This document shows, one piece after another, positions 6,717 to 62,922 of a stretch of 64,000 bases of DNA (position 1 is its first letter; every line of letters begins with the position of its first letter). The translations under genes were made by a program, and so were the position numbers. The stretch spans positions 86 through 64,085 of the forward strand of contig DATKCD010000093.1 in NCBI GenBank assembly GCA_035544735.1. The letters are read 5' to 3'. Source of the stretch: Thermoanaerobaculia bacterium. Its GTDB lineage: Bacteria; Acidobacteriota; Thermoanaerobaculia; Gp7-AA8. Below the pieces are notes generated by a model, which saw only the letters and a program-made list of their open reading frames with translations, was not told where the DNA came from and ran no database searches.

Positions 6717-6920
6717 TCAGACGGGGACGACGTTGGTCGCCTGCTTCCCTTTCGGTCCCTCGGTCAGATCGAACTCCACCTGCGCCCCTTCGGCCAGCGT
6801 CCGGAATCCCGATCCCTGGATCGCGCTGTAATGAACGAACACGTCTTCGCCGCTCTCCAGCGTGATGAAACCGAATCCCTTCGCATCGTTGAACCACTTC
6901 ACCGTGCCCTGACTCCTCAT
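6717..6920 (-). CDS. cspA: Cold-shock protein, CspA family
   Basis: Last 67 aa of ORF 6717..7130: [35 protein letters not shown]..., with RNP1 (KGFGFI) and RNP2 (VFVHY). Confidence 0.95.
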
Positions 6921-7045
6921 TCGATTCTCTCCCTCGATCTCACCTGAGCTCGTGGCGCTGCTCGGACACCTCGAAGGAACCGCCTCCTTCGCATCAGAAC
7001 CGCACAGCCTCACTGCGTGTAGGAGGAACGGGGAGATTACTACAA

Positions 7046-7074
7046 ATAATCCACAAAACCTCAGATTATGACAA
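7046..7074 (-). promoter_or_regulatory. Candidate sigma70-type promoter of csp (TTGTCA-N17-GATTAT), implying a ~120-nt leader
   Basis: In the locally AT-rich divergent intergenic region, the minus strand reads ggTTGTCAtaatctgaggttttgtgGATTATttgtag. Long 5' UTRs are typical of cspA-type genes. No experimental TSS. Confidence 0.35.
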
Positions 7075-7289
7075 CCGGCGCCGCCCGAGGCACGGGCGGA
7101 CGATCGACTCGTAAGTGGCATAGGACTCATAAATTCGACCTTGTTCGCCGGCGGACATCTGCCAGGACCCGACCGCCGGGCCGGATCCCGCTCGCGGCCG
7201 CCGGCGCGCTCGCCCGCTCCGCCCTGCGGTAGACTTCCCGCCGCGCCCCGGTCGGGGGCGCCATCTCCCTCCGGAAAGGACCCACGACG

Positions 7290-17243: not shown

Positions 17244-20200
17244 ATGGCAGCCATCACGAACGCCTCGATCCGCCGCCCCGTCGCGACCTCGATGATCTAT
17301 CTGATGCTCATCGTGGTCGGAGTCGTCTCGTTCCGCGCCCTTCCCATCGACCTTCTGCCGGCGGTCGAGTTCACCCAGTTGACGGTCAGGGTCCGGTATC
17401 CCAACGTCGGTCCCGAAGAGATCGAGAGAATCATCACCGATCCGATCGAGAACGCGGTGTCGGGCCTGCCGAATCTCGAGCGGATGACCTCGGTCTCGGA
17501 AGAGGGATCGAGCCGCGTTCGGCTCGAGTTCGCTCGCGGGACGAACATCGATGAAGCGGCGAACGATCTGCGCGCCGCGCTCGACCGCCTTCGGGACGAG
17601 CTGCCCCTCGAAGCCGATCCCCCCGAGATCCTGAAGCTCGATCTCGACCGCATCGAGGTCGTCAGCATGTACGCGACCTCCTCGCACCCGCTGTCCGAGC
17701 TGACGCGGATCCTGGAGGAGGACCTGGCGCGGCGCTTCGAGCAGATCCCCGGCGTCGGCGCCATCCAGGTGAGGGGCGGGATCTACCGCGAGATCCGGGT
17801 CGAGCTCGATCGCGAGCGGCTCCAGGCTTCGGGCCTGACCGCGCTCGACGTGCAGGAGGCGATCGCGAGGGAAAACGTCACCCTTCCGGGCGGAAACGTC
17901 AAGAGCGGATTCAGCGACCTGTACGTGCGCACCTCGGGCGAGTACGTGTCGGTCGACCAGATCGCCTCGACGGTCATCACGACGATCGACGGGTTCCCCA
18001 TGCGCGTGGCCGACGTGGCCCGGGTGCGCGACGGACACGAGGACGTGCTGTATCTGGTCGAGGTGAACGGAGTCCCCTCGGTCAGCCTCGGGATCCAGAA
18101 GCAGAGCGGGGCGAACACGGTGGAGGTCGCCCAGGAAATCCGGCGCGAGGTCGCGAGGATCAACGCCGAGAGCGACGAGATCCACCTGACGATCTTCTCG
18201 GACCAGAGCGAGTTCATCCGGCAGTCGATCGCGAGCGTGCGCAACTCCGCGATCTGGGGCGGACTCCTCGCGATCGTGATTCTCTACGTCTTCCTGCGGA
18301 ACCGCTCGAGCACGTTCATCATCTCTCTGGCGATCCCCATCTCGGTGATCTCGACCTTCGGGCTGCTCTACTTCGGCGGAATGACGCTGAACCAGATGAC
18401 CTTCGGAGGTCTCGCGCTCGGGGTGGGGCTGATGGTGGACAACGCCATCGTCGTGATCGAGAGCATCGTGAGGAAGAGAGAGGAGACGGACGCGAGCTCG
18501 GTCGAAGCGGCCGCGGTGGGAACGCGCGAGGTGGCCGGAGCGATCGTGGCCTCCACGCTGACGAGCTGCGTGATCTTTCTTCCGGTCGTATTCACCCGCA
18601 CGACGAGCGGCGCTCTGTTCCAGGCGCTCGCGCTCGTGGTGGTCTTCGCCCTCGTCTGTTCGCTAATGGTCGCGCTGACCCTGGTCCCGATGCTCGCGGC
18701 GAGGCTGCACCGCTCGGGCCGCGCGAGAACGCGCCGTAACCTGTTCGCGCGCGCCGAGACGTGGTACACGGGAAGGCTGCGCCGCGCGGTCCAGCGGCGA
18801 GGCCTGGTGTTCGCCGCCACCGGAGGGCTGCTCCTGGCGGCCCTGCTGCTGTGGCCGCTCATCCCCGTCGAGCTCGCCCCTCAGACCGACGCCGACGAGA
18901 TCGACGTCGACATCGACATGGCGCAGGGGACCAACATCGCCGTGGTCGGGACCTACGTGCGCGAGCTGGAATCGCGCGTCCGACGGCTGCTCTCACCCGG
19001 CGACGTCGAGCTGGTGACGACCGAGGTCCGCGGCAGCCATGCCGAGGTCGAGCTCAAGCTCGCCCCGCAGGGAAGGCGCGCGGTCTCGGCCACGGAGATC
19101 GCCGACCGCCTCCGCTCCAGCCTCGAGGGTCAAATTCCGGGCGCCGAGATCCGCGTCGACGCGCAGCCCGGTCTCTGGATCCTGCGAAGGATCTTCAGCT
19201 CGGGCGGCGGAGAGGAAGCGATCGAGCTCGAGCTCCGGGAATGGGACCTCGATCGCGCCGACGAAACGGCCCGCGCCATGCTCAGGCGCATCGAGGGGAT
19301 CGCGGGCATCACGGACGTCCGGATCAGCCGGCGGGAGGGACAGCCGGAGGAAAACCTCGTGATCGACCGCGCCCGCATCGCCGAGGTGGGGCTCTCCGCG
19401 CGCGAGGTCGCGCGCACCCTGCAGGCGAATCTCGGAGGAATGGAAGCCGGCAGGCTCCGCCAGGGCGGCGAAGAGTATCCGATCGTGGTCCGGCTCCGTC
19501 CGGAGGACCGCCTTCTCGCGGAGGACCTGCGCAACGTCTCGCTCCGTACCTCGACGGGCGGCACCGTGCCGCTCTCGACGCTGGTCCGCCGGGAGCGGAG
19601 CCGAGGCCCGACCGCGATCGGCCGCGTCGACGGTCAGCGCGTCACCTACATCACCGCGAGCCTCGAGGGGGGCCTCGCCCTGGGCGAGGCGGTCGAGCGC
19701 ATCCGCGAGGCGCTCACCGAGGTCCCGCTGCCCGAGACCTCGTCGCTGCTGTTCGGCGGCGAGTACCAGGAGCAGCAGGAGGCGCGCCGCGATTTCCTCA
19801 TCGCGATCGCGATGGCGATCGCTCTCGTCTACATGCTCATGGCGGCGCAGTTCGAGCGTTTCCTCGACCCGCTCGTCGTCATGCTCTCGGTTCCCATGGC
19901 TCTGGTCGGCGTCGTGCCGGCGCTGCTGCTCACCGGAACGACGCTGAACATGCAGAGCATCATGGGGCTGATCATGCTCGTCGGCGTCGTCGTGAACAAC
20001 GCCATCGTCTTCGTCGAGACGATCAACCTGCTCCGCCGCGAACGCCACCTCGCCGCCCCCGAAGCCGTCGTCGAGGCAGGCCGCCTCCGCCTCAGACCCA
20101 TCCTGATGACCACCTCCACGACCGTGCTCGCGCTCCTTCCTCTCGCCATCGGGATCGGCGCGGGCGCCGAGATCCAGGCCGCGTTCGCGCGCGTCGTCAT

Positions 20201-20345
20201 CGGCGGCCTGATCGCATCGACGCTCGTCACCCTCGTGCTCATCCCGGTCGCCTACATCAGCGCCACCGGCACGGTCGCCCGCATCCGGGGGCGGATGTCG
20301 TGGAAGGCCCGCCCGCCGGCGGACGAAGATCGCGCAACGGCGTGA
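17244..20345 (+). CDS. RND efflux transporter permease (AcrB/HAE1-like)
   Basis: 1033 aa in a 12-TM layout with two large periplasmic loops. Typical start ITNASIRRPVATSMIYLMLIVVG. Starts 13 nt after the adaptor gene. Confidence 0.95.
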   Translation: MAAITNASIRRPVATSMIYLMLIVVGVVSFRALPIDLLPAVEFTQLTVRVRYPNVGPEEIERIITDPIENAVSGLPNLERMTSVSEEGSSRVRLEFARGTNIDEAANDLRAALDRLRDELPLEADPPEILKLDLDRIEVVSMYATSSHPLSELTRILEEDLARRFEQIPGVGAIQVRGGIYREIRVELDRERLQASGLTALDVQEAIARENVTLPGGNVKSGFSDLYVRTSGEYVSVDQIASTVITTIDGFPMRVADVARVRDGHEDVLYLVEVNGVPSVSLGIQKQSGANTVEVAQEIRREVARINAESDEIHLTIFSDQSEFIRQSIASVRNSAIWGGLLAIVILYVFLRNRSSTFIISLAIPISVISTFGLLYFGGMTLNQMTFGGLALGVGLMVDNAIVVIESIVRKREETDASSVEAAAVGTREVAGAIVASTLTSCVIFLPVVFTRTTSGALFQALALVVVFALVCSLMVALTLVPMLAARLHRSGRARTRRNLFARAETWYTGRLRRAVQRRGLVFAATGGLLLAALLLWPLIPVELAPQTDADEIDVDIDMAQGTNIAVVGTYVRELESRVRRLLSPGDVELVTTEVRGSHAEVELKLAPQGRRAVSATEIADRLRSSLEGQIPGAEIRVDAQPGLWILRRIFSSGGGEEAIELELREWDLDRADETARAMLRRIEGIAGITDVRISRREGQPEENLVIDRARIAEVGLSAREVARTLQANLGGMEAGRLRQGGEEYPIVVRLRPEDRLLAEDLRNVSLRTSTGGTVPLSTLVRRERSRGPTAIGRVDGQRVTYITASLEGGLALGEAVERIREALTEVPLPETSSLLFGGEYQEQQEARRDFLIAIAMAIALVYMLMAAQFERFLDPLVVMLSVPMALVGVVPALLLTGTTLNMQSIMGLIMLVGVVVNNAIVFVETINLLRRERHLAAPEAVVEAGRLRLRPILMTTSTTVLALLPLAIGIGAGAEIQAAFARVVIGGLIASTLVTLVLIPVAYISATGTVARIRGRMSWKARPPADEDRATA

Positions 20346-20348
20346 ACA

Positions 20349-20671
20349 AGGCATTGAAAAGCATTGAGGATCTATGATTGATGATTGCAAACCATTGATG
20401 ATCTATGATTGATGATTGATGATTGATGATTGAAAGGCATTGAGGATCTATGATTGATGATTGATGACTGATGGCCGAGGATGGTTGAGCGGCTACCGAT
20501 GGTCACCGATCACCGTCCCGCAGACTCGCATCGATCACGCGTACGAGCCCCCAACCATCAATCCTCAAATCATCAATGCTGTTCGATCATCAATCATCAA
20601 TCATCAATCATAGATCATCAATGTCTTTCAATGGTTTGCAATCATCAATCATCGATCATCGATCATCAATG
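20349..20671. repeat. AT-rich palindromic element made of inverted TGATTGA heptamer arrays (copy 1)
   Basis: Left arm 20349-20473 is (TGATTGA)n with GCATTGA/TTGCAAA punctuation. Right arm 20551-20671 is its reverse complement. Perfect inverted blocks: 20375-20398 with 20628-20651 (24 bp), and 20393-20430 with 20586-20623 (38 bp). The left arm is about 34% G+C by hand count. Confidence 0.9.
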
Positions 20672-21427
20672 GGGTTCGCGACGATCACGCTCAACCGTCC
20701 GGAGAAGCTGAATGCGTTCGCCGGGACGATGCGCGAGGAGCTGATCGCCGCGCTCGATCGCGCGCGGGACGAGCCGGGCGTCCGCTGCGTCGTGATCACC
20801 GGCGCCGGACGTGCGTTCTGCGCCGGAGGAGACGTGGAGGCGATGAGCCGCATGCGCCGGGAGGGAGACCTCGACGGCTTCATGCGGCTGCTCGATGCGG
20901 GAGCGAGGATCGTCACGGCGATCCGTGAGATGCCGAAGCTCGTGCTCGCCTCGATCAACGGAGTCGCCGCGGGAGCCGGCTGCAATCTCGCCCTCGCCGC
21001 CGACGTCAGGATCGCATCCTCGGAGGCGACGCTCGTCGAGAGCTTCGTCCGGATCGGCCTGCATCCCGACTGGGGAGGGACGTACTTCCTGCCGCGGCTG
21101 GTCGGGACTTCGCGGGCGATCGAGCTGATGGCGACGGGAAGAGTCGTCGGCGCCGCGGAGGCGCTCGAGATCGGGATGGTGGACCGGGTGGTGGAACCGG
21201 GGCGGCTTTCCGCGGAGACCACGGAGCTGGCGCGCGCGGTCGCGTCGGGCCCGCCGGGCGCGATCGCCGACCTCAAGCGCGCCGTTCTCGCCGCGGAGGG
21301 CGGCCGGCTCGCCGAACAGCTCGAGCTCGAGAAAGAGCACCAGCGACGGGCTTTCAACTCCGCCGATGCGGCCGAAGGGATCGCCGCCTTCCTCGAGAAG
21401 AGACCTCCCCGATTCGACGGCCGTTGA
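20669..21427 (+). CDS. Enoyl-CoA hydratase/isomerase (crotonase) family protein; start uncertain (20669, 20621 or 20576)
   Basis: FATITLNRPEKLNAF, VVITGAGRAFCAGGDV, ASINGVAAGAGCNLALAADVRI. The ORF is open upstream through the repeat arm. Confidence 0.85.
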   Translation: MGFATITLNRPEKLNAFAGTMREELIAALDRARDEPGVRCVVITGAGRAFCAGGDVEAMSRMRREGDLDGFMRLLDAGARIVTAIREMPKLVLASINGVAAGAGCNLALAADVRIASSEATLVESFVRIGLHPDWGGTYFLPRLVGTSRAIELMATGRVVGAAEALEIGMVDRVVEPGRLSAETTELARAVASGPPGAIADLKRAVLAAEGGRLAEQLELEKEHQRRAFNSADAAEGIAAFLEKRPPRFDGR

Positions 21428-24217: not shown

Positions 24218-24419
24218 GGCTGCCCTCCGGCGGTTCGTCCGCCCCTGCCATAGAGCAACGGGGGAGCCACGGTGCCAGCCTCGCGGTTCACACCTCGCAA
24301 ACTACTGATATGAGAGATCTTAGTCAAGGATCCTTCGGCACCTCGAGCCGATTCGAACTGGGGCATGATGGGACAGTCCAGGTTTCACGACACATGATCT
24401 TGGACTAAACAGCTTAGTT

Positions 24420-25958
24420 TCAGTTTGTTACGTCAGTATCCCAAAAAGGGGCGTTAGGGTCAAGAAGGGACAACTCGTCTCTCCGGCGGTAGAGCGTCTT
24501 GCGATCGATCCCGAGGATCCTTGCGGCGCGGCTGATGTTGCCGCCGGTCTGCTCGAGGACCCGGGCGATGTATCTCCGCTCGAGCTCGCGCAGCTCCGGC
24601 AGATCGGCGACGAGCTCGCTTCCGAGCGCTCCTCGCGGCTCCTCGGGGAGGAGCAGCGCGTCGGCCTCGATCACCGGATCGACGGTCACGGCGAGCGCCC
24701 CTTCGATGAGATTCTCGAGTTCGCGGACGTTTCCGGGAAAGGGATGGCGCATCAGCTTCTGGAGCGCCTGCTGCGAGATCCGGACGTTGCCGAGGCCTTC
24801 GCGGCGGCCGTACTTCTCGATGAAGTAGCGGACGAGTCTGGGAATGTCCTCCTTCCGGTCGCGCAGCGGAGGGAGGAAGATCTCGACCACGCGGAGCCTG
24901 TAGTAGAGATCCTGGCGGAACTCGCCGAGCTCGATCATCCGCTCGAGGGAGCGGTGGGTGGCGGCGAGGATGCGGACGTCGACCGGGATTCGGCGGCGGC
25001 CGCCGAGCTTCTCGATCTCGCGCTCCTGGAGCACGCGGAGGAGCTTGGCCTGGAGCGTGACGGGAATGTCGCCGATCTCGTCGAGGAAGACCGTGCCGCC
25101 GCTGGCGATCTCGAACTTGCCGGGGCGCGCCTCGACGCCGGTGGCGACCCCGCGCTCGATTCCGAACAGCTCGGACTCGAGCAGGGTCTCGGGAAGGGCG
25201 GCGCAGTTGATGGCGACGAAGGGCTTGTCGGCGCGCGGAGAGTTGCCGTGAATGAGGCGCGCGACCATTTCCTTCCCGGTTCCCGACTCGCCGCGGATCA
25301 GAACGTTGGCGTGGCTTCCGGCGACGCGGGCGACCAGGTCGATCACGCGCTGCATCTCCCGCGACTCGCCCACCATCAGGCGGTCGCTGTACTCGCGCAG
25401 CATCCGCTGTTTGAGAGAGCGGTTCTCGTCCTCGAGCGACTCCCGCACCATCTCCAGGCGATGGAAGTTGCGCGTGTTGTCGATGGCCGCTCCGCCGATC
25501 GCGGCGAGCGAGCCTAGGAAGCGCAGATCGTCCTCGTCGAACGTTCCACTCCTCGCGCCCCGCCTCTCCTTCCCCCCCACGGCCAGCGCCCCGATCACCT
25601 TCTCCCCCGCCACCATCGGCGCGATCAGGATCGCTCCCTCACGCCCCTCCACGAGCGGCCCCGCCTCCCCAGCCACCGCCGTCTTCATCGCGAGCGCGCG
25701 CCGCACCGGCTCTTCGCTCATCACGCTCGCGCTCAGCTCCTCCCGCTCCATCCCCACGGTGAACGACTGCTGGACTCCCAGACTCTCGTCGACCGCGACC
25801 GCGAACCCGAACGATGCATCGACCAGCGCGGTCGCGCGCAACAGCAGCTCCTCCAGCAACTCCTCTTCGCTCCGGAGCGTGTTCAGCGCACGCCCCACGT
25901 CGTAGAGTGCTTCGAGCTGAAGCAGCTTCCGCTTCTGTTCGAGGTTCATCCCGGCCAT
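24420..25958 (-). CDS. GAF-sensor, AAA+ sigma54-type enhancer-binding protein with Fis-type HTH (degenerate GAFTGA loop)
   Basis: GESGTGKE Walker A, VFLDEIGD Walker B, C-terminal HTH (ISRAARILGIDRKTLYRR). Start taken at MAGMNLEQ (25958 or 25949). Confidence 0.9.
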   Translation of the reverse strand: MAGMNLEQKRKLLQLEALYDVGRALNTLRSEEELLEELLLRATALVDASFGFAVAVDESLGVQQSFTVGMEREELSASVMSEEPVRRALAMKTAVAGEAGPLVEGREGAILIAPMVAGEKVIGALAVGGKERRGARSGTFDEDDLRFLGSLAAIGGAAIDNTRNFHRLEMVRESLEDENRSLKQRMLREYSDRLMVGESREMQRVIDLVARVAGSHANVLIRGESGTGKEMVARLIHGNSPRADKPFVAINCAALPETLLESELFGIERGVATGVEARPGKFEIASGGTVFLDEIGDIPVTLQAKLLRVLQEREIEKLGGRRRIPVDVRILAATHRSLERMIELGEFRQDLYYRLRVVEIFLPPLRDRKEDIPRLVRYFIEKYGRREGLGNVRISQQALQKLMRHPFPGNVRELENLIEGALAVTVDPVIEADALLLPEEPRGALGSELVADLPELRELERRYIARVLEQTGGNISRAARILGIDRKTLYRRRDELSLLDPNAPFWDTDVTN

Positions 25959-29078: not shown

Positions 29079-29132
29079 GACGCCCGAGACGCTCCAGACG
29101 CTCCAGACGCTCCAGACTCCCCGGACGCCGGG
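29079..29132. repeat. Nonamer tandem repeat (GACGCTCCA family), about 6 units, in the ileS upstream region
   Basis: gacgcccga gacgctcca x3 gactccccg gacgccggg. Same unit as the arrays at 59344-59588. Confidence 0.75.
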
Positions 29133-31997: not shown

Positions 31998-32090
31998 TTT
32001 CAGTTCTCATTTTGCCGGATCGGTCTTACATTGGATCGGCGGATGCCCGGGGGCATCCACCCGATTTCAGGCGGGAGGAGGCAGCGCATC

Positions 32091-32483
32091 GTGGCGACAT
32101 TGAAGCGGAAGATTCAGAGGGCGGTCCGAAACTTGAAACGCACTGCTCTCGACAAAGGAGAAGATGCGATGGCTTCCATGGTGAAAACAGTCAGGAAGAA
32201 GGCGAAACCGATCGTGAAGGACGCGAAGAAGGCGGCGAAACGGCTCCGGAAGGACGCCGGAAAGGCCGCGAAGAAGGCGGCGAAGGACCTCCGGAAAGCC
32301 GCCCGTCCGAAGATCCGCGAGGCGAAGAAGGCGCTCGCGAAGACCTCGGCCAGAGTGACCGCGGCCGCCGCCTCCGAGGGAGGGAAGGCCGCCGCGAAGG
32401 CGAAGAAGGCGCTCTCGAAGCAGGCCGACGAGGCCCGCGGCGCGCTGAAGAAAGGTCTCAGGAAGGCGTCGAAGGCGCTGTGA
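32091..32483 (+). CDS. Lys/Ala-rich highly basic protein (histone H1-like / nucleoid-associated candidate); start uncertain
   Basis: GTG at 32091 lies 9 nt after GGGAGGAGG. Alternative ATG at 32169 lies after AAGGAG. Sequence KKAKPIVKDAKKAAKRLRKDAGKAAKKAAKDLRKAARPKIREAKKALAK. Confidence 0.55.
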   Translation: MATLKRKIQRAVRNLKRTALDKGEDAMASMVKTVRKKAKPIVKDAKKAAKRLRKDAGKAAKKAAKDLRKAARPKIREAKKALAKTSARVTAAAASEGGKAAAKAKKALSKQADEARGALKKGLRKASKAL

Positions 32484-38131: not shown

Positions 38132-38779
38132 TCAGGGCGTCGGCTGCGGCGCAGCCGCGTTCCAGTTCACATGGTAAACGATCCCGTCGTCGAAGTAGAC
38201 CGCGGCGGCTCCGCCGTCCTCCCGGGGGAAGATCCAGACCGAGTAGAGCCGATCGTCCTGGCGCGCGTGCTTGATCCAGTCCTCGCGGGGGGTCCCGAGG
38301 CGGGAGGCGACCTCGCGCTCGCTCATGCCGGCGCGAACCGAGGCGAAGTCGTCCATCGAGACGAACCTGCGCGACTGCGCCATGTTCAGACGTCTGCGGG
38401 CGTCGTCGTTGTCGGGATCGACCGCGAGAGCGGAGCGGTAGAGCTCGATCGCCCGCTCGTAGCGCGCGAGCAAGCTCATGTAGGCATCGCCGAGCCGGAT
38501 CCGCTCGTTCGCGAGAAGCCTCGCCGCGCGTGGATCACCGGTCCGGCCATGGTACTCGCGCAGCCGGCCGAGCAGGGGGGCGAGGGTCGGTTCGAGGCGC
38601 TGCTGGTTCCGCAGATGGATCTCCACGTGCTCGCTCCGCGAGGCGCCGGGCGGCGGCTGAGGCAGGACGCGCCGCAGCGACTCGACCGTCTGGTATTCAG
38701 CCCAGAGCGAGGTCCACTCCCGATCGTTCGGCCGCGTCGGGAGGGCCGTGGCACAGGCAGCCGAAAGCAGCAGAATCAT
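38132..38779 (-). CDS. Lipoprotein with TPR-like and SmpA/OmlA (BamE-like) segments; start uncertain
   Basis: MILLLSAAC lipobox at ATG 38779. LGDAYMSLLARYERAIELYRSALAVDPDN; FASVRAGMSEREVASRLGTP. The ORF stays open upstream through the repeat arm. Confidence 0.65.
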   Translation of the reverse strand: MILLLSAACATALPTRPNDREWTSLWAEYQTVESLRRVLPQPPPGASRSEHVEIHLRNQQRLEPTLAPLLGRLREYHGRTGDPRAARLLANERIRLGDAYMSLLARYERAIELYRSALAVDPDNDDARRRLNMAQSRRFVSMDDFASVRAGMSEREVASRLGTPREDWIKHARQDDRLYSVWIFPREDGGAAAVYFDDGIVYHVNWNAAAPQPTP

Positions 38780-38780
38780 T

Positions 38781-39160
38781 AAGGCATTGATGATTGAGGA
38801 TTGATGATTGATGATTGAAGGCATTGTTGATTGATGATTGATGATTGAGGATTGATGATTGAAAAGCATTGATCATGGATGACTGAAAGGCATTGAAGGT
38901 GATTGATGAATCGGGATCGATCCTCGGATCGGTGAGCTCCGCTCCGACTGCTGAATGTTGATTTCTGCCGGCTGATTGCGACGACGATCTCTACTACGCA
39001 TCGCTGCCTTTCAATCATCAATCATCAGGCTTTGCAATCATCAATCCTCAATCCTCAATCATCAATCCTCAATCATCAATGCTTTGCAATCATCAATCAT
39101 CAATCATCGATCATCAATGCCTTGCAATCATCAATCATCGATCATCAATGCTTTTCAATG
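38781..39160. repeat. AT-rich palindromic element made of inverted TGATTGA heptamer arrays (copy 2)
   Basis: Left arm 38781-38912 is (TGATTGA/GGATTGA)n. Right arm 39006-39160 is (TCAATCA/TCAATCC)n. A perfect 28-bp inverted block pairs 38784-38811 with 39055-39082. Same GCATTGA and TTGCAA(A/G) punctuation as copy 1. Confidence 0.9.
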
Positions 39161-40270
39161 TCTCTTGAGGCCGTCGACCACGGGGGCGATCCGATCCTCG
39201 AGGCGCGCGCCGAACTCGGCGCGGATCTCGAAGATCCATCCGTAGAGGAGCTCGTTCACTACCGAATTGACGATGTCGTTGCGATCGGTCGATCCCGACG
39301 AGATGAGGTTGTTGAGGAGCTGATCGAAGTCGACCCGTCCTTCGTTCATCAGGTTGATCCCGCTCAGGTAGGGGAGGACCTCGGGGGAGAGATGGAGGAC
39401 GACGCGATCGAGGAAGTCGTAGATGTGATCTCCGATTTCCTGATAGACGATGCCGAAGATGAGCTGGAAGGCGGAATTGTAGCTTTCGACGCGCGATTCG
39501 AGCTCCATTTCGCGCTCGAGCTCGCTGCGGCGGGCGTCGCGCCGGATGCCCTCTTCGTCCTCGACCAGGTTGACGGCGAGCAGGGCCCAGAGGGTGCGGC
39601 AGGTCTGGAAGTTCGACAGATAGCTGCGCGCGCAGATCGATCCGACCGACTGCGGCTCGGAGAGCAGCTCGAAGATGATCGTCTCGTCCTCGCGCAGATC
39701 GAGATGGTAGATCCGCGAGTCTCCGTCGGCGGCCTGCCGGAGGGTGCGTTCCATCTTTCCGACTCCGCGAGAGACGAGCGACCATTCGGTGATGCGTCCG
39801 ACTCCGTCGAGCAGAAGGCGCTCGGTCTGGATGGGAAGGCGCGGGATCTCGCGGTCGAAATCCGCGGTGAACTCGATCGTGTAGCTGCCCGAGCGGTAGG
39901 CAAGGGCGTGGATGACGACATCCGAGACCTGGCGCTCGAGCGCGCGGACCAGCTCCTCCGGCTTCAGGTAGCCGAGCTCGCAGAGGACCGAGCCGATTCG
40001 CTGGTGGCTCGTGGCGCTCTCGGTGGCGCGGATGTAGTCGTGAATCCCGATCTCTCCGTTGCGCAGGAGCACTTCCGCGAGCCCGAGGTCGGGATCGGAG
40101 GTGGCTGCGTAGACGATCTTGCCCCGGCGGAGATAGATGCTGTCGTGCCGGCCGATGGCTTCGAGCGTGACGACCGCCGTCTCGGCGCTCCGGATCAGGG
40201 ATCGGCAGAGATCGGGCACCGTCGTCTCGGCCAGCGTTCCCTGAATGGTCAGCTCTTCGCTCATCGGCAC
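39155..40270 (-). CDS. DUF4388 (PATAN-type) domain protein
   Basis: N-terminus LTIQGTLAETTVPDLCRSLIRSAETAVVTLEAIGRHDSIYLRRGKIVYA fits the DUF4388 pattern (G-L, hydrophobic block, G-x-L, G-x-iv-A). Starts 1 nt after the GGDEF gene stop. Confidence 0.75.
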   Translation of the reverse strand: MPMSEELTIQGTLAETTVPDLCRSLIRSAETAVVTLEAIGRHDSIYLRRGKIVYAATSDPDLGLAEVLLRNGEIGIHDYIRATESATSHQRIGSVLCELGYLKPEELVRALERQVSDVVIHALAYRSGSYTIEFTADFDREIPRLPIQTERLLLDGVGRITEWSLVSRGVGKMERTLRQAADGDSRIYHLDLREDETIIFELLSEPQSVGSICARSYLSNFQTCRTLWALLAVNLVEDEEGIRRDARRSELEREMELESRVESYNSAFQLIFGIVYQEIGDHIYDFLDRVVLHLSPEVLPYLSGINLMNEGRVDFDQLLNNLISSGSTDRNDIVNSVVNELLYGWIFEIRAEFGARLEDRIAPVVDGLKRH

Positions 40271-47082: not shown

Positions 47083-48216
47083 CTATTTCAGGTCGACGAT
47101 CTGTTCCCGGACGAGCTTGTGGAAGATGAGGAGGGCGTCGATCTCGCGCATGGGGCTGATCTTGGTGATCGAGGCGACGTCCCACTGCGCGTTGATCCGC
47201 GAGAGGATGAATCCCTCGTTCGGGGTGAAGTTCATGCCGCTGAGCTCCTCGAGCGGGCGCCGCAGATGCGGCACCCTGTGGTCCGAGATCCCCTGGCGCT
47301 TGAGCTCCGAGAGGATGACGGACTCACCCCCCTTGAGAGCGGTGCGGACCTTCGCGCTCTCGGGATCGAGGTTCTGAGCCGCCTTGAGCAGCCGCAGCGC
47401 CTTCTCGAACTCCCCCTCCTTCAGCCCGCCCTGCGCGCGGGCGAGGAGAGACTCGATCTCGGAGTCGTCGGCGGAGAGCTCGGCCGGCGCGGCCGCCGGC
47501 TCCGGCGCGGCCGCCGCCGCTTTCTCTCCGAGCTTCATCTTTCCAGCCGAAACGAGCTCCGAGATCGTCCGCGACACGACGAAGGTCGACGATCGGCTCT
47601 CGAGCACGATCCCTTCGATCGTCCGCTCGCCGTCCACCAGCTCGACGATCCTCTTCTGCGCCTCGTTCAGCTTGCTCAGGTCGAGCTTCCCCTTCCGCGA
47701 CGGAACCAGGGCCGTACTCGTCACCACCTTGCGGGCGCGGTCCCACTCGTCGACCCGCCGCGAGCCCTCCATCACGACCCCGGTGACGTCGAGGTTCAGC
47801 GGCACCAGCTCCATCGCCGGCTTCTCGTCGTCGTGGAACTCGAACTCTCCGTCCGGCCAGAGAAAAACGTCGTAGATCTCCTCTTCCGCCTTCCGCTTCA
47901 TCAGTCGCTTGAGGTCGTCCTCGGTGATCGCCTCGATGATGACCAGGATCTTGCCGAGCAGGATCTTCGATTGCAGCTGGACCTCCATCGCCTTCTTCAG
48001 CTCGTCCTCCGAGATGTAGCCGTAGCTCATGAGGAACTGGCCGAGGTACTCCCGAGGATCGGTGGAGGCGGATGAGACGACTTTTCCCTTCTGAACGAAG
48101 ATGGTTTTTTCGACCGAGGTGTTCCGGACGACGAGGCGTCCGGTCTTCTGGCTGAAGCTCAGCCACTGGAACAGGTGGCCGGCGGCCATGGTGCGGAGGT
48201 GTCCGGAAACGCTCAT
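47083..48216 (-). CDS. DUF4388 (PATAN-type) domain protein with C-terminal TPR-like region
   Basis: MSVSGHLRTMAAGHLFQWLSFSQKTGRLVVRNTSVEKTIFVQKGKVVSSAS. Followed by LG-x-L-x-x-G-x-I-s-x-x-x-L repeats. Confidence 0.75.
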   Translation of the reverse strand: MSVSGHLRTMAAGHLFQWLSFSQKTGRLVVRNTSVEKTIFVQKGKVVSSASTDPREYLGQFLMSYGYISEDELKKAMEVQLQSKILLGKILVIIEAITEDDLKRLMKRKAEEEIYDVFLWPDGEFEFHDDEKPAMELVPLNLDVTGVVMEGSRRVDEWDRARKVVTSTALVPSRKGKLDLSKLNEAQKRIVELVDGERTIEGIVLESRSSTFVVSRTISELVSAGKMKLGEKAAAAAPEPAAAPAELSADDSEIESLLARAQGGLKEGEFEKALRLLKAAQNLDPESAKVRTALKGGESVILSELKRQGISDHRVPHLRRPLEELSGMNFTPNEGFILSRINAQWDVASITKISPMREIDALLIFHKLVREQIVDLK

Positions 48217-48312
48217 CGAGTGCGCCGCAGGTGAGGGCGGCACCCGCGCCCGCCGGCCGGGTGAAGGTAACAGACTTCCCCGGGCTTGTGAATCGAGCCG
48301 GCCCGCGGCGCC

Positions 48313-55786: not shown

Positions 55787-58561
55787 TTACGCCGCTTCGT
55801 CGCCGGAGGCCTCGCCGTCTTCGACCCCTTCATCGTCCGGGTCGTCGCGGCCGGGCGGCTCCTCGGGAGGCTCCTCCGGCGGCTCCTCCGGCGGCTCCTC
55901 GGGAGGAGGCGCCTTCGCGGGAGGCTCCACGGGCGGCGGCTCGGGCGGCTTCGGGCCAGCGGAGGGGGGCTCCTCGCGAGGCGGCTCCGGCTCGGGACGG
56001 CTCCCGGGTTCGGGGCGACCCTTCTCGTCCGGAAGCGGCGCGGGGAGTCGCACCGGAGGCTGAGTCGTCGTGACCGGCGGCGGTGGCGAAGTGCGCGTCG
56101 GGAAGTTTCCTCCTCCGAGGACCGGCTCCGGCCGCTCGCGAGTCTCGGTCGTAATGGGATCGGTGGTCGTGGGATAGGGATAGGGATAGGGATCGGGATA
56201 GGGATAGGGGTCGAGAGGATCGACGCCGAGCGGGAGGCCGTCGGGACCGAGGATCGGCATCCCGTAGGCGTCGACCAGGAAGGGCTCGCGGATCTGATGG
56301 ATGGGACAGGGGTGGCGCGGCTCGGTGCCCGCCTTGAACGCTTCGTCGACGAGCTGTCCGCGCGGACACTGAGGGGTCGACAGACCGCCGGTCGCCGCGT
56401 CGGTCTCGACGAAGACGATGCCGCGCGGCACGGGGAACTCGGAGCTCTCTTCCCGCTCCGTGATGTCGTTCATGAAGCGGGCCCAGATGGGGAGGGCTCC
56501 CTCCGAGCCGGAGACTCCGACCGGCGCGTTGTCGTCGAATCCGATCCAGGCGAGAGCGAGCGTGCGCGGCGTGAAGCCGACGAACCAGGAGTCGCGTTTC
56601 TCGTTGGTCGTTCCGGTCTTGCCAGCGGCCGTTTTGCGGAAGCCGAGGGAGCGGGCGCCGGCGCCGGTTCCGCGGTCCATGACGCCTTCCATCAGATGAA
56701 CGCCGAGGAAGACGTCGCGGGGGGGAAAGACCTGAACGGGAGTGATGTCGGTGTGGGAGACGGCGTCGCCGTTCTCGTCGCTGACCCAGCGGATCGCACG
56801 GAGCGGAAGGCGGGAGCCCATGCGGGCCATGGTGTTGTAGGCCTCGGCGATCTCGACGGGAGGGACTTCGACGGCGCCGAGGAGGATCGCCGGGTTGGCG
56901 TCGAGCTCGGAATCGATGCCGAGGGCGTTGGCGGTGCGGATCACGGACTCGACGCCGGTGGAAAGTCCCAGGCGGACGGAAGCGGAGTTCATCGACTTCT
57001 CGAGCGCCTGGCGGACCGTGACGACGCCGTAGTAACGCCCCTCGTAGTTTCCGGGCGACCAGTCCCTGGCGAAGCGGCGCTCGAGGACGAAGCGGGAGTC
57101 GTTGACCAGGGTTGCGGGGGTGATGTTCTGGTGGGAGAGGCTCGGCTCGAAGGCGGCGAGGTAGACGAAGGGCTTGAAGAGCGATCCGACCTGACGGCGG
57201 GCGCTCGTCGCGCGGTTGAACTGGCTGCGCTGATAGTCGCGCCCGCCGACGAGGGCGCGGATCTCTCCGGTGTCGACGTCGACGGCGATGATGGCGCCCT
57301 CGAGCGGCTGCTCCGCGCGGCGTAGCCGGCTCGAGGACTTCTCCAGGCGCGCGAGGCCATTCTCCAGTCGCCGCGCCGCCGCCGCCTGCCGGTCGAGGTC
57401 GATCGCCGTGTAGACGCTCAGCCCCCGCCCCTCGACCTCGTCGATCCCGTAGTCGCGCCGCAGCTCCTGCAGGACCCGATCGACGTAGAACGGGATCGAC
57501 CCGAGACCGCTCCCTCCGCGATCGGGCTTCTCCGGCAGCGGCTCTTCGAGCGCCGCCTCGAGCTCTTCGTCCGAGATCTTGTCCCGACGCGCCATCTGCT
57601 TGAGCACCGTGTCGCGCCGCTTCTTCGCCGCCTCCGGATCCTCGAACGGAGAAAAATTGTTCGGCGACGGGATCATCCCGGCGAGCAGCGCCGCCTCGGC
57701 GGCCGAGATCTCCGCAACCGGCTTGCCGAAATAGAACCTCGAGGCCTGCCCCACACCGAGAATCGAGATCGAACGATTCCTTCCGAGGTAGATGTCGTTC
57801 AGGTACGCTTCGAGGATCTCCTCCTTCGAGTATTTCGCGTCGAGAATCAGAGCCATGAACGCCTCGACGACCTTCCGCCGGAGCGTTCTCTCGTTGGTCA
57901 GGTAGTAGTTCTTGACCAGCTGCTGAGTCAGCGTCGATCCCCCCTCGGATGCGCTTCGGCTCCGCACGTTCCGGACCACGGCTCGGAGGACTCCGACCGG
58001 GTCGACGCCCGGATGCGAGAAGAAACGGGCGTCTTCCGCCGTCACCACCGCGTCGATCAGATGCTGCGGCACCGAGTCGAGCGCGACCGGGCTCCGGTTC
58101 TCGAGCTGCTCTCCCATGATCGAAGTGAGCAGCTCCGGCTCGAGCGACGCATCTCCCGCGCCCTCGGCCGAGCCGATCGACTCCCCCTCCATGACCAGCC
58201 GCACCACTTTCGCCTCCTGGTCCCCCGCCGGATGAGCGAAGGCGCGCAGGTGGATCTCCCATCCGTCGTCTCCCGTCCGGAACGTTCCCGGCCGGTCGAT
58301 CTCCTCCGACTCGCGGTAGCCGAGCCGGGCGAGCTTCTCGCGCAGCGCCTCACGCCCGATCGGCGACCCGGCCACCAGCGGAAGTCTGTCGGTGTAGATC
58401 CTGCTGGGAAGTGAGACCCGCCGGACCTCGAAGGTCCGAACCGCCTCGAGATAGACCCAGGCGGCCATCGCGATAATAGCGAGAGCGAGGATCAGGGTGC
58501 CGATGGCGACGGTCTGGAACACGCTTCTGCGGCTGGGGAGTCTCGGTGCGAAATCGGGCAT
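55787..58561 (-). CDS. Bifunctional penicillin-binding protein 1A family (GT51 transglycosylase + transpeptidase) with Pro-rich C-terminal tail
   Basis: EDARFFSHPGVD, GGSTLTQQL, RKVVEA (GT51). SLFKPF (SxxK), SMN, KTGTT (transpeptidase). Tail PYPYPDPYPYPYP...(EEPP)n. Confidence 0.95.
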   Translation of the reverse strand: MPDFAPRLPSRRSVFQTVAIGTLILALAIIAMAAWVYLEAVRTFEVRRVSLPSRIYTDRLPLVAGSPIGREALREKLARLGYRESEEIDRPGTFRTGDDGWEIHLRAFAHPAGDQEAKVVRLVMEGESIGSAEGAGDASLEPELLTSIMGEQLENRSPVALDSVPQHLIDAVVTAEDARFFSHPGVDPVGVLRAVVRNVRSRSASEGGSTLTQQLVKNYYLTNERTLRRKVVEAFMALILDAKYSKEEILEAYLNDIYLGRNRSISILGVGQASRFYFGKPVAEISAAEAALLAGMIPSPNNFSPFEDPEAAKKRRDTVLKQMARRDKISDEELEAALEEPLPEKPDRGGSGLGSIPFYVDRVLQELRRDYGIDEVEGRGLSVYTAIDLDRQAAAARRLENGLARLEKSSSRLRRAEQPLEGAIIAVDVDTGEIRALVGGRDYQRSQFNRATSARRQVGSLFKPFVYLAAFEPSLSHQNITPATLVNDSRFVLERRFARDWSPGNYEGRYYGVVTVRQALEKSMNSASVRLGLSTGVESVIRTANALGIDSELDANPAILLGAVEVPPVEIAEAYNTMARMGSRLPLRAIRWVSDENGDAVSHTDITPVQVFPPRDVFLGVHLMEGVMDRGTGAGARSLGFRKTAAGKTGTTNEKRDSWFVGFTPRTLALAWIGFDDNAPVGVSGSEGALPIWARFMNDITEREESSEFPVPRGIVFVETDAATGGLSTPQCPRGQLVDEAFKAGTEPRHPCPIHQIREPFLVDAYGMPILGPDGLPLGVDPLDPYPYPDPYPYPYPTTTDPITTETRERPEPVLGGGNFPTRTSPPPPVTTTQPPVRLPAPLPDEKGRPEPGSRPEPEPPREEPPSAGPKPPEPPPVEPPAKAPPPEEPPEEPPEEPPEEPPGRDDPDDEGVEDGEASGDEAA

Positions 58562-58594: not shown

Positions 58595-59446
58595 TCATGC
58601 CTGAACCGCGATCGCGAGGATCCGTCCCGCTCCGGCGCCGCTGCGACGATACGAATGGAAGATCGAGCCGTCACAGCGGGTGCAGAGGGCCGAATCGACG
58701 ATGTTCGCCCGATCGATCCCCCGCTGCTCCAGAATCCGGCGGGTCAGGCCCGCCAGGTCGAAATGGGGCCGCGGTCCGCGCGTTCGATCGACGAAAGGGT
58801 CCACCGAATCGTAACGGGCGGCAAAAGCCTCTACCACTTCGTCACCGACTTCGAAGCAGCAGGCACGGATCGCCGGACCGAGCCAGGCGCGGGCGCTCGC
58901 GGCGGAGAACGACGAAAGACGCTCGAGCTCGTCGAGTGTCCGCGGCACGACCCCCTGCGCGGCGCCTCTCCATCCCGAGTGGAGGTTCGCCAGAACGCGG
59001 TGCTCGGGATCGACCACGGTCACCGGAAGGCAGTCGGCGACCTTGATTCCGAGCGCCATGCCGGGACGATCGGTCCAGAGCGCGTCGCAGGTGCCGAGCT
59101 CCCGCCACCCGGTCGATGGACTCGCGGCAAAGACGAGCTCGGTCCCATGGACCTGCGTGCTGGTGACCAGTCCGATTCCAGCTCCCCACCGCCGCTGCAG
59201 GAACGTGGTCAGCGCGTCGAGGTCCTCCCCGGCGAGCCGACCGCTGAAATCGACCGAGGTGTAGAAGAGTCCGCATCGGTCGGGAAGCCGCGGGGCGAAC
59301 ACCACGCGCCCGAGGCCCGGAACCCTCTCGACGGACCACGGGGGCGTCTGGAGCGTCTGGAGCGTCTGGAGCGTCTGGAGCGTCTGGAGCGTCTTGGGCG
59401 TCTTGGGCGTCTTGGGCGTCTTGGGCGTCTCGGGCGTCTCAGGCAT
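58595..59446 (-). CDS. pgeF: Peptidoglycan editing factor PgeF (YfiH/DUF152, laccase-domain protein) with repeat-encoded N-terminal tail
   Basis: VHGTELV, ADCLPV, HSGWRG, CCFEVG, CTRC...FHSYRR. ATG at 59446 is preceded by AGGAGG 7 nt upstream. No other in-frame ATG occurs before the conserved core. Confidence 0.85.
   Translation of the reverse strand: MPETPETPKTPKTPKTPKTLQTLQTLQTLQTLQTPPWSVERVPGLGRVVFAPRLPDRCGLFYTSVDFSGRLAGEDLDALTTFLQRRWGAGIGLVTSTQVHGTELVFAASPSTGWRELGTCDALWTDRPGMALGIKVADCLPVTVVDPEHRVLANLHSGWRGAAQGVVPRTLDELERLSSFSAASARAWLGPAIRACCFEVGDEVVEAFAARYDSVDPFVDRTRGPRPHFDLAGLTRRILEQRGIDRANIVDSALCTRCDGSIFHSYRRSGAGAGRILAIAVQA
59344..59442. repeat. Nonamer array, 11 units (GCGTCTGGA x5, GCGTCTTGG x4, 2 variants), inside the pgeF 5' coding region
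   Basis: Read directly from the sequence. In frame it encodes PETPE(TPK)4(TLQ)5 on the minus strand. Confidence 0.9.
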
Positions 59447-59516
59447 CCGGGAGCCTCCTGGGTTCTGGGGCATCACATCACACATCGCACACGGCGTCCT
59501 GGGCCTCTACAGGTTG

Positions 59517-59588
59517 CAGACGCTCTGGACGCTCCAGACGCTCTGGACGCTCCAGACGCTCCAGACGCTCCAGACGCTCCAGACGCCC
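59517..59588. repeat. Nonamer array, 8 units (CAGACGCTC/TGGACGCTC), inverted relative to 59344-59442
   Basis: Abuts the stop codon (59589-59591) of the upstream DUF4388 gene. Positions 59546-59586 are perfectly complementary to the (GCGTCTGGA)5 run. Confidence 0.9.
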
Positions 59589-60413
59589 TCACGCCGTGCT
59601 GCGGAGCAGGGTGGCGATGTCGTTGCGGAGCTGCTCGGCGACGGCGGAGCCGCGGAGCAGGGCGGTGGTCTTTTCGAGCTCGCGGATCATCGCACGGATG
59701 GCGAGCGGACCGCTTCCCGAGCGGATCGCCTCGACGGCCGAGCCGAAATGCTTCTCGATCGATTTCGATCCGTTCGCGCCGATGTGCTGCTCGGCGACCC
59801 CGCGGATCTGCCGCGCCAGGTCGACCAGCGCTTCGACTTCGGTGTCGTCCGCTTCGGCGGGCGCCTCGTCGGCTTTCGAGCGCGTCAGCCCGACCAGCTC
59901 CGCGGTCAGCATTCCGTAGAGAATCTTCGCGGCCTCGAACGACGAGAGCTCGAGCGATTGCGCGATCCCGGCGACGCTCTGCTGCCCGTCGATGCGCGTC
60001 ACGAGCAGCCACTCTTGCGGATTGAGCGTGATCTGTTCGTGGCGGTTGTCGCGTGGGAGCAGGATCGGGATCATGTCGACCGAGGGGATCTTCCTCGACA
60101 ACACCTTCCATTCGTCGGCCCGCCGCGCAGCCTCCATCAGAAGGTTGGTGTTCGACCGGGTGATCGTCTGCTCGGTCGTCTCTTCGGTCTGGGCGAAGAC
60201 GAAGTCGCCCTCCTTCCAGATCGCCAGGGCGTAGACCGCTTCCTCCCCCGTCATCTCGCCGCTCTCGGCGTGAATGATCTGACCGTTGCGCAGGAAGATC
60301 AGCCCCTCTTCATCCCCTCGAGTCAGCGTGAACTTTCCGGTCTTGCCGGAAACGCTGACGAGCTGGATGATATCGGGAAGCGGAAGCTCCTTGAGCGAAC
60401 CCTGAAAGGACAT
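59589..60413 (-). CDS. DUF4388 (PATAN-type) domain protein
   Basis: MSFQGSLKELPLPDIIQLVSVSGKTGKFTLTRGDEEGLIFLRNGQIIHAESGEMTGEEAVYALAIWKEGDFVF, a textbook DUF4388 N-terminus. Start taken at ATG 60413. Confidence 0.8.
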   Translation of the reverse strand: MSFQGSLKELPLPDIIQLVSVSGKTGKFTLTRGDEEGLIFLRNGQIIHAESGEMTGEEAVYALAIWKEGDFVFAQTEETTEQTITRSNTNLLMEAARRADEWKVLSRKIPSVDMIPILLPRDNRHEQITLNPQEWLLVTRIDGQQSVAGIAQSLELSSFEAAKILYGMLTAELVGLTRSKADEAPAEADDTEVEALVDLARQIRGVAEQHIGANGSKSIEKHFGSAVEAIRSGSGPLAIRAMIRELEKTTALLRGSAVAEQLRNDIATLLRSTA

Positions 60414-60518
60414 TCGACTCCGTTGCATCGGGGCGGCTAATCCGCCCGATGTCGCTGAACCCAAACGATTTCCGAGCGACGACAACCTGAGGCAGCAAGC
60501 GTAGCGCATCCCCCCCCG

Positions 60519-62846: not shown

Positions 62847-62922
62847 GGGGCCGTAGCTCAATTGGGAGAGCGCCTGAATGGCATTCAGGAGGTCGTCGGT
62901 TCGATCCCGATCGGCTCCACCA
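62847..62922 (+). tRNA. tRNA-Ala (anticodon GGC), CCA encoded
   Basis: Hand-folded cloverleaf. Acceptor GGGGCCG/CGGCTCC with the G3:U70 Ala identity pair. D arm gctc-aattggga-gagc. Anticodon arm cctga-atGGCat-tcagg. T arm gtcgg-ttcgatc-ccgat. 76 nt. Confidence 0.95.

Follow-up and report, generated by a model that had tools for sequence, protein, structure and literature searches.

Two long palindromes built from tandem heptanucleotides were identified in the window analysed here, a 64-kb stretch of contig DATKCD010000093.1 from a Thermoanaerobaculia bacterium (Acidobacteriota). Copy 1 (20349-20671) lies between a resistance-nodulation-division (RND) efflux pump gene and a crotonase gene, and copy 2 (38781-39160) between genes encoding a DUF4388 protein and a tetratricopeptide-repeat (TPR) protein. 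In each element, two heptanucleotide simple-sequence-repeat arrays face each other as a convergent inverted pair and, together with the centre between them, fill the entire spacer between two co-directional genes (both on the + strand for copy 1, both on the - strand for copy 2), and in gene sense both copies read stop codon, (TGATTGA)n, centre, (TCAATCA)n, ATG. They belong to a described class of intergenic heptamers (Rehm et al., 2015; PMC4692102), to which they add a unit incapable of quadruplex formation, a compound architecture, longer arms, stop and start codons placed in the predicted stem and another phylum. We tentatively favour, at a little under an even chance, the reading that the elements are functional co-transcribed intercistronic hairpins, which would mask the downstream start codon until a ribosome terminating at the upstream stop codon opens the base of the stem.

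Both copies are real palindromes of inverted heptamer arrays. The G+C content of the whole window is 0.681, and a scan across it found 100-nt windows below 0.40 only at 20310-20721 and 38733-39202. Tandem Repeats Finder reported period-7 arrays in all four arms, at 20394-20473 (11 copies), 20552-20670 (15.6 copies), 38786-38862 (10.7 copies) and 39011-39149 (18.7 copies), together with longer periods of 31-45 nt. The 14-mer TGATTGATGATTGA, searched with up to two mismatches, gave 34 matches in the window against 0.07 expected, all confined to the two loci, the left arms matching on the + strand and the right arms on the - strand, and inverted arms are 86-95% complementary. For copy 1, the original prediction, made from the DNA alone, had described an arm of about 34% G+C following a pump stop codon at 20343-20345, perfect inverted blocks of 24 bp (20375-20398 and 20628-20651) and 38 bp (20393-20430 and 20586-20623), a 27-nt direct repeat at 20361 and 20437, and a GC-rich centre of about 77 bp. 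A measured G+C content of 0.344 for 20349-20473, a TGA at the stop position, exact reverse complementarity of both block pairs, both occurrences of the direct repeat and a centre at 20474-20550 with a G+C content of 0.649 bear out this description, and Pfam matches to ACR_tran and ECH_1 confirmed the placement between an RND pump and a crotonase. The second copy that it had proposed at 38781-39160 indeed consists of inverted heptamer arrays.

The arms are made of the units TGATTGA, TGATCGA and GGATTGA in arrays of 11-19 units without any GGG. Since the unit lacks G-tracts, it cannot form a G-quadruplex of the kind proposed for published heptamers. Superimposed on the heptamers is a higher-order architecture in which [C]AARGCATTGA is followed by 3-6 heptamers per higher-order unit. 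All four arms align over about 100 columns, punctuation and terminal RRCATTGA included, whereas the centres of copies 1 and 2 are not alignable (46% column identity), indicating that the arms share ancestry and that the palindromes were not copied as whole units. The 5' arm of copy 1 is C-poor, with 10 C in 125 nt and TGA in all three frames, and its 3' arm is G-poor, with 11 G in 121 nt and a G+C content of 0.355. The claim that forward arms carry TGA in every frame while reverse arms are free of stops held for the forward arms (6-9 stops per frame), but the reverse arm of copy 1 contains one TAG (1/0/0 by frame). The right arm of copy 2 has no stops (0/0/0), and 39005-39162 read on the + strand is a G-poor array free of stops in all three frames.

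The suggestion that the region can fold as one long hairpin was supported by folding both copies. The predicted energies are -172.5 kcal/mol for copy 1 (z = -14.1) and -178.7 kcal/mol for copy 2 (z = -11.6), and the minimum-energy folds contain 118 and 117 arm-to-arm pairs, respectively, only 4 and 5 of which are G-U. In both predicted folds the stop and the start codon would face each other in the stem base, because CATTGA holds TGA and its complement TCAATG holds ATG. The 5' arm of copy 1 begins 4 nt past the pump TGA, and the crotonase ATG (20669-20671), within TCAATG, is the end of the 3' arm. This AUG is predicted to pair with CAU at 20352-20354, 7-9 nt past the stop codon, and the stop codon itself with crotonase codons 3-4. 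In copy 2 the 3' arm stops 1 nt short of the ATG of the TPR gene, and the stop codon is predicted to pair with the 3 nt that directly precede the AUG. No Shine-Dalgarno motif could be read within 20 nt upstream of the crotonase or the TPR start codon. A promoter scan found no sigma-70-like promoter in either element, and a terminator scan found no intrinsic terminator in either, the stems being AT-rich, about 118 bp long and not followed by a T run. Of the three roles that had been proposed, an intercistronic RNA hairpin thus fits best, given the co-directional genes, the lack of promoter- or terminator-like sites in the elements and the predicted location of stop and start in the stem base. 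The coordinates of the elements and their neighbours are collected in Table 1.

Table 1. Features of the two heptamer palindromes, of the related 9-nt arrays and of the adjoining genes in the 64-kb window.
Feature	Position	Strand	Description
RND efflux pump gene	17244-20345	+	Pfam ACR_tran and others
Pump TGA stop codon	20343-20345	+	predicted partner in fold 20676-20678
Copy 1 5' arm	20349-20473	+	(TGATTGA)n with RRCATTGA / TTGCAAACCATTGA punctuation, higher-order units 31-45 nt
Copy 1 centre	20474-20550	+	77 nt, non-repetitive, G+C 0.649
Copy 1 3' arm	20551-20671	+	(TCAATCA)n/(TCGATCA)n, terminal TCAATG
Crotonase gene	20669-21427	+	Pfam ECH_1, E = 6e-62; 252 aa
Solitary 9-nt array	29079-29128	+	(GACGCTCCA)n, same unit as third palindrome
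TPR-repeat gene	38132-38779	-	Pfam
TPR gene ATG	38777-38779	-	predicted partner: last sense codon of the upstream gene, CAU 39158-39160
Copy 2 3' arm, gene sense	38781-38915	-	G-poor (TCAATCM)n leader
Copy 2 centre	38916-39004	.	56% G+C
Copy 2 5' arm, gene sense	39005-39162	-	(TGATYGA)n with CAARGCATTGA punctuation
DUF4388 gene	39155-40270	-	Pfam
DUF4388 TGA stop codon	39155-39157	-	inside terminal CATTGA of copy 2; predicted partner 38780-38782
Third palindrome, 9-nt unit	59341-59586	-	(GGAGCGTCT/TGGGCGTCT)n 59341-59439 facing (CAGACGCTC)n 59517-59586, 77-nt centre

This layout suggests how the elements might work. The spacer would be transcribed together with both genes. Its C-poor (UGAUUGA)n arm would start 0-4 nt past the upstream stop codon with UGA in each frame, and its G-poor (UCAAUCA)n arm would serve as a leader without Shine-Dalgarno motif, nearly stop-free and with few starts, which reaches the AUG or ends 1 nt from it. 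The two arms would zip into a stem of about 118 bp with the upstream stop facing the downstream start at its base, so that the downstream start would be masked. A ribosome terminating at the upstream stop may then unwind the lowest 12-15 bp, a figure drawn from the ribosome footprint and helicase activity, and thereby expose the downstream start, so that translation would be coupled across the 320-380 nt between the genes. In addition, the stem may protect the upstream message at its 3' end in the manner of a repetitive extragenic palindrome (REP). As to origin, replication slippage at 7-nt units plus inverted duplication or arm exchange between loci could have produced the elements.

The strongest indirect argument that ribosomes see the arrays comes from the order of paired arms in other bacteria. 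A search of other genomes had been proposed in the original prediction, and a scan of one genome per species for three KGATTGA-type units found at least 120 loci. The repeat itself recurs in many phyla, the matches listed representing Acidobacteriota, Planctomycetota, Verrucomicrobiota, Bacteroidota, Beta- and Deltaproteobacteria, cyanobacteria and other groups, cultured isolates included. The pattern used for a metagenome scan was too permissive and matched pure arrays, being unspecific for the compound design of the window, of which it retrieved no further copies; its matches, too, are a lower bound. Among the matches listed the same small-scale layout is found at many loci (e.g., L004, L078, L038, L107, L165, L221, and L161), repeated GCATTGA punctuation occurs in only 2 of 243 loci, and paired arrays show the order 5'-(KGATTGA)n...(TCAATCM)n-3' in 33 of 34 cases, with one reversed (p = 4e-9). 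The stability of a hairpin is indifferent to the order of its arms, whereas the avoidance of AUG/UGA mini-frames is not, which argues that the arrays are read by ribosomes. The reverse order would bring AUG/UUG-UGA mini-frames, as well as the GAGG motifs in GGATTGA variants, close to the real start, which the observed order alone avoids.

The flanking genes of these elements mostly show the co-directional arrangement of the two window copies. Gene orientation was called at high-GC loci from the G+C content by codon position (GC3 > GC1 > GC2), a rule that was checked on four Pfam-supported genes of the window. Among the 19 elements with both flanks callable, 15 lie between co-directional, 3 between convergent and 1 between divergent genes. 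In 12 of the 15 co-directional hairpins a stop codon was found -25 to +10 nt from the start of the first arm, and in 11 of the 15 a start codon was found -10 to +25 nt from the end of the second arm. For solitary arrays, where the gene calls are crude, the median distance to the nearest gene boundary is 10 nt 5' of the G-rich strand and 52 nt 3' of it.

The original prediction had not recognised the design among REP sequences and bacterial interspersed mosaic elements (BIMEs), enterobacterial repetitive intergenic consensus (ERIC) sequences, MITEs (miniature inverted-repeat transposable elements) or CRISPR arrays, and it is indeed none of these, but convergent heptamer pairs were already known from Xanthomonas and Nostoc (Rehm et al., 2015; PMC4692102). 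These authors described the intergenic heptamers GGGAATC in Xanthomonas and GGGGA(C/T)T in Nostoc, with 70-75 convergent inverted pairs in each finished Xanthomonas genome. In both genera the G-rich strand is the coding strand 0-50 bp past a stop codon or overlapping it, the complementary strand is found 0-50 bp upstream of start codons, co-directional gene pairs are favoured and divergent ones under-represented, and the arrays are mostly transcribed, vary in unit number between strains and show no tie to mobile elements (PMC4692102). The window elements share every positional feature of this class, being non-coding tandem 7-nt units in convergent inverted pairs no more than 50 bp from stop and start, and the C-poor-arm-first order of the KGATTGA pairs matches the rule given there. 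They differ in that TGATTGA has no GGG and can form neither G-quadruplex nor i-motif, while the published units favour four copies, and in their arms of 120-160 nt, the punctuated higher-order structure of 31-45 nt, the stop and start in the predicted stem and the acidobacterial host. Rehm et al. regarded the function as unknown and emphasised G-quadruplex formation (PMC4692102).

Other published repeats resemble the elements in part. In marine Beggiatoaceae, Cyanobacteria and Bacteroidetes, direct repeats of TAACTGA, for which translational regulation was suggested (MacGregor, 2015; PMC4679880), similarly lie a few nt upstream of starts without Shine-Dalgarno motif, hold TGA in the unit and are scattered across phyla. 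In contrast to the window, where the stop-free complement precedes the start, it is the stop-containing ('forward') strand that does so there, and the 'Maribeggiatoa' genome has one indirect (inverted) set against 169 direct ones (PMC4679880). Heptamers are, as that paper cites Mrazek (2007), the commonest long simple repeats in many genomes, with polymerase slippage proposed as their origin, and Mazel et al. (1990) described intergenic cyanobacterial heptamers of the short tandemly repeated repetitive (STRR) type; as far as these accounts go in the portions considered here, they are general statistical descriptions of which a paired palindromic layout and a relation to stop and start are not part. 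In Geobacter metallireducens, paired sites of five tandem MTYCTGA units are annotated as putative global regulatory sites and, in the figure legend concerned, drawn looping across both strands (PMC2700814); these too are tandem heptamers ending in TGA, but the sites of that legend have five units only and a different unit. The literal TGATTGA repeat turned up only in unrelated eukaryotic and viral papers in our literature search, none of them on a bacterial array.

Of the known systems, the REP sequences and BIMEs of enterobacteria offer the closest parallel to the element's possible mode of action. Like them, the element is an extragenic palindrome next to a stop codon in the spacer of co-directional genes, the transcription of which is putative in the window. 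REP sequences are reportedly able to protect the 3' end of the upstream mRNA and to interfere with termination if they lie no more than about 15 nt from a stop codon. Their units, however, are 20-40 nt long, imperfectly palindromic, marked by a conserved 5' tetranucleotide and clustered in alternating orientation, with stems of about 10-15 bp, compared with about 118 bp of tandem heptamers in the window, where the arms contain no REP-like unit. REPs also occur in hundreds of copies and are linked to REP-associated tyrosine (Y1) transposases (RAYTs), and a Pfam scan covering 48 of the 52 candidate open reading frames (ORFs) of the window gave no match to a transposase, integrase, RAYT, ribbon-helix-helix, ParB, plasmid or Cas family. 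Several further candidates were rejected. CRISPR does not fit contiguous 7-mers in inverted arrays, which lack 23-50 nt repeats with spacers, and no cas domain was found in the scanned ORFs. CsrA-type sites were discarded in view of the few GGA motifs in the window arms, TTGAT targets of the ISDra2 type in view of the lack of TnpA and TnpB in the window, and kink-turn C/D motifs as their matches are below threshold. A relaxed Rfam search gave C/D-box small nucleolar RNA scores of 17-21 bits where 36-45 are needed, weak matches that arise because UGAUGA resembles the C box. A match to a known Rfam family, which had been named as evidence against a new design, was not obtained at gathering score, where the sole match in the window is the tRNA at 62847 and neither element matches any family.

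Several observations weigh against a functional hairpin. The opposite strands fold alike (-172.5 against -169.3 kcal/mol for copy 1, -178.7 against -179.5 kcal/mol for copy 2), so that the complementarity could be kept at the DNA level, and the 15 co-directional relatives show no sense-strand bias either, with 2 favouring the sense strand, 3 the antisense strand and the rest neutral (median difference 0.7 kcal/mol). About 70% of the arrays listed from the genome sample are solitary (90 of 129), hence a hairpin is not obligatory for the class. Among crotonase orthologues of 67-71% identity, two of three loci (L299 and L301) have no array upstream, and the element is therefore not needed for that gene. 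The window crotonase is 252 aa long, compared with 259 aa in most listed relatives; its N-terminus is 7 aa shorter and lacks the conserved MIxxETxDxI of the relatives, and the array sits where the missing codons would be. Judged by this sequence comparison, the array seems to have overwritten the 5' end of the gene, with the ECH_1 domain left intact (residues 3-251 correspond to profile positions 6-250 of 251). Moreover, a near-perfect RNA duplex of about 118 bp is an expected substrate of RNase III and could cut expression rather than couple it.

Part of these findings would be accounted for by the main rival explanation, namely that the arrays are functionless and tolerated by-products, which slippage grows and template switching inverts, and which survive only where they are harmless, that is stop-rich after genes and free of starts and stops before them. 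The patchy presence upstream of crotonase, the apparent damage rather than design at its first 7 codons and the lack of a preferred folding strand all agree with it. Period 7 accounted for 374 of the 435 tandem arrays in 1.48 Mb of retrieved loci, with many different units, which fits a general bias towards 7-nt slippage. In viral contigs no unit-specific enrichment was seen, as (TGATTGA)3 occurred at 22 loci compared with 17 and 16 for two permuted units. The loci L143 and L197, which have nearly identical flanks, differ by several units in both arms, again as slippage would have it. Pairing between the arms is nevertheless retained in both, and as the first arm of this element, located upstream of ATGGAAC..., consists of (TTGAGGG/TTGAGAG)n facing (TCAATCA/TCGATCA)n and pairs mainly through G-U, the hairpin would form far better, if not exclusively, in sense RNA (L197, -58.2 kcal/mol for the sense and -31.6 kcal/mol for the antisense strand), an asymmetry that is not general.

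Other evidence is harder to reconcile with a by-product. Independent slippage would not yield the higher-order punctuation shared over about 100 nt between the two window copies, and the 33:1 arm order together with the tight fit to stop and start require at least selection on transcripts. In addition, the leader ...AAATCATCAATCATCAATCATCGATCATCA-ATG is kept in four orthologous loci (L128, L211, L240, and L164), where it is 82-100% identical with the same number of units, while third codon positions of the downstream gene are only 55-69% identical (synonymous divergence 31-45%), and in L164 the array is kept despite a differing upstream region. Conservation of a tandem array could, on the other side, reflect homogenisation by slippage rather than selection, a further reservation about the functional reading. 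On balance we consider a mere by-product somewhat unlikely.

Turnover at the window loci themselves was approached by comparing filled with empty sites, as had been proposed. The closest pump homologues, 76% identical and annotated as Thermoanaerobaculia (Acidobacteriota), have other downstream genes and no arrays, and the crotonase orthologues have other upstream genes, so neither side offered a clean pair. No close relative of the window genome was found, and variation in unit number was seen in L143 and L197 only as related loci. Upstream of a 71%-identical crotonase orthologue, L300 carries at 2370-2450 a small hairpin of another heptamer, 55 nt before the ATG, with the arms TTGTCTG TTGTTCG TTGATCG TTGCCTG and CAGGCAA CAAGCAA CAGGCAA CAAACAA, the G/T-rich arm coming first.

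The equal self-complementarity of both strands is also what a DNA palindrome would show, and AT-rich islands in a genome of 68% G+C would melt easily. The elements might accordingly act at the DNA level, either as iterons for a repeat-binding protein or as cruciforms with an effect on supercoiling, replication or the organisation of the nucleoid. Ribbon-helix-helix proteins bind heptads, and the omega repressor of inc18 plasmids is known to have iterons of this length that follow one another without spacing, both directly and inverted, upstream of plasmid par or copy-control genes, with the binding protein encoded nearby. The best fit of the arms to the omega heptad WATCACW is, however, (A)ATCATC with 5 of 7 positions, the context is chromosomal and intercistronic, and the scanned ORFs contain no ribbon-helix-helix, ParB or other candidate match. 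The partition-centromere role put forward in the original prediction finds no footing for the same reasons, since the scanned ORFs include no par genes and gave no plasmid match, their lone 'ParA' match is of the Mrp/NUBPL iron-sulfur type, and the content of the window is ordinarily chromosomal, including isoleucyl-tRNA synthetase, methylmalonyl-CoA mutase, CarA, PhoH, YbeY, a class A penicillin-binding protein and others. Action on DNA also predicts neither the 33:1 arm order nor the placement at stop and start, and the occurrence of the unit in very distant phyla is hard to square with a lineage-specific regulator, which makes an explanation of this type improbable.

Long inverted arms are a property that the elements share with MITEs and with eukaryotic foldback transposons, in the latter of which short tandem repeats make up the arms themselves. 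If the elements, or their arms as modules, were non-autonomous mobile DNA of MITE or foldback type inserting at gene boundaries, this would explain why four homologous arms with the same punctuation and terminal RRCATTGA are found at loci 18 kb apart, between which sequence must have moved, why presence among relatives is patchy and why the 5' end of crotonase is apparently overwritten. This proposal was weakened by the ends and centres of the elements. No target-site duplication is present at the four ends, which are flanked by AACA/GGGT (copy 1) and ATTA/TCTT (copy 2), the unalignable centres indicate that the palindrome did not move as one unit, and no transposase, integrase or RAYT was detected in the window, the view of the chromosome, and with it of copy number, being limited to 64 kb of the genome. 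Classification as a MITE was rejected on the same grounds, and the Xanthomonas and Nostoc heptamers are likewise not tied to mobile elements (PMC4692102). We hold mobility to have a low probability.

We give almost no weight to an assembly artefact, in which a collapsed or chimeric inverted repeat would have been created by short-read metagenome assembly. The contig does come from an uncultured organism, and short reads make it difficult to assemble the right number of units in long tandem arrays, the exact unit counts of which may well deviate from the assembly. Yet the arms are imperfect and irregular and lie well inside a 114.6-kb contig with intact genes on either side, the design is present at two separate loci, KGATTGA arrays occur in isolate genomes and inverted pairs in many independent assemblies among the matches listed, and finished Xanthomonas genomes contain inverted pairs as well (PMC4692102).

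A broader version of the intercistronic-hairpin reading can be formulated, in which heptamer 'zipper' spacers would be a general device acting on ribosomes across phyla. A G-free (UCAAUCM)n leader would replace the Shine-Dalgarno motif, its C-free complement past the preceding stop codon would shut the leader, and the ribosome terminating at the stem foot would be handed to the next start or unmask it over a distance of hundreds of nucleotides. Such a device would be something like a bacterial counterpart of hairpin-bypassing shunting, and the positional rules shared by G-tract heptamers (Xanthomonas, Nostoc), TGATTGA and the 9-mers of the window would go back to one translational mechanism instead of G-quadruplexes. 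We regard this generalisation as quite unlikely.

Among the long simple repeats of bacteria, tandem heptamers are the most common and have been noted since 1990, with no function ever demonstrated, and the one detailed earlier study explained them by G-quadruplexes. That the same rules of position and orientation hold for a unit incapable of forming quadruplexes argues against this explanation and points to a different common cause, most simply a constraint or function at the level of translation. The layout of the window elements, in which a stem of about 118 bp is predicted to bring the stop opposite a start without Shine-Dalgarno motif at its base, offers a concrete translational model. In phyla with poorly understood initiation signals, it could account for the way such spacers couple neighbouring genes or set their expression. 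One strand of the arrays is open in every frame, which also invites wrong start-codon calls in annotation. In copy 1, in-frame ATGs at 20576 and 20621 within the array would add 31 or 16 array-encoded residues to crotonase, and are a likely source of such miscalls.

The window further contains arrays of a 9-nt unit that obey the orientation rule of the heptamers, with the C-rich strand before starts and the G-rich strand after stops. The third palindrome (Table 1) begins 2 nt past the stop codon (59589-59591) of a second DUF4388 gene and continues into a Cu-oxidase_4 ORF at its 5' end, with which the array would be in frame; it folds with -207.8 kcal/mol on the + strand and -177 kcal/mol on the gene-sense strand. 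The solitary array at 29079-29128, some 70 nt upstream of where the isoleucyl-tRNA synthetase gene starts, has its C-rich strand in sense orientation. Three DUF4388 genes, all on the - strand, are encoded within the 64 kb (39155-40270, 47083-48243, and 59589-60509), and two of them directly precede array palindromes, one of heptamers and one of 9-mers. The proteins encoded by these two are 21% identical, and the association may be due to chance.

Other compositional or repeat features lie elsewhere in the window. The class A penicillin-binding-protein gene (55787-58561, - strand) carries 12/24-nt and 6-nt (GGGATA) tandem repeats in its 3' part, at 55852-55956 and 56171-56209, which presumably encode a low-complexity C-terminal tail. 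Two stretches of milder low G+C content contain no tandem arrays; one, at 24299-24505 (minimum 0.44), lies between STAS-domain and sigma-54 activator genes, and the other, at 6974-7135 (minimum 0.49), overlaps the upstream part of a called cold-shock ORF (6717-7130), the true start of which is probably further downstream as the CSD domain comprises residues 74-136 only. Finally, a 150-aa ORF without Pfam match (32031-32483) contains 33- and 45-nt tandem repeats (GGCGAAACC...GAAGGACGCC...) at 32201-32303, where the local G+C content is 0.59.

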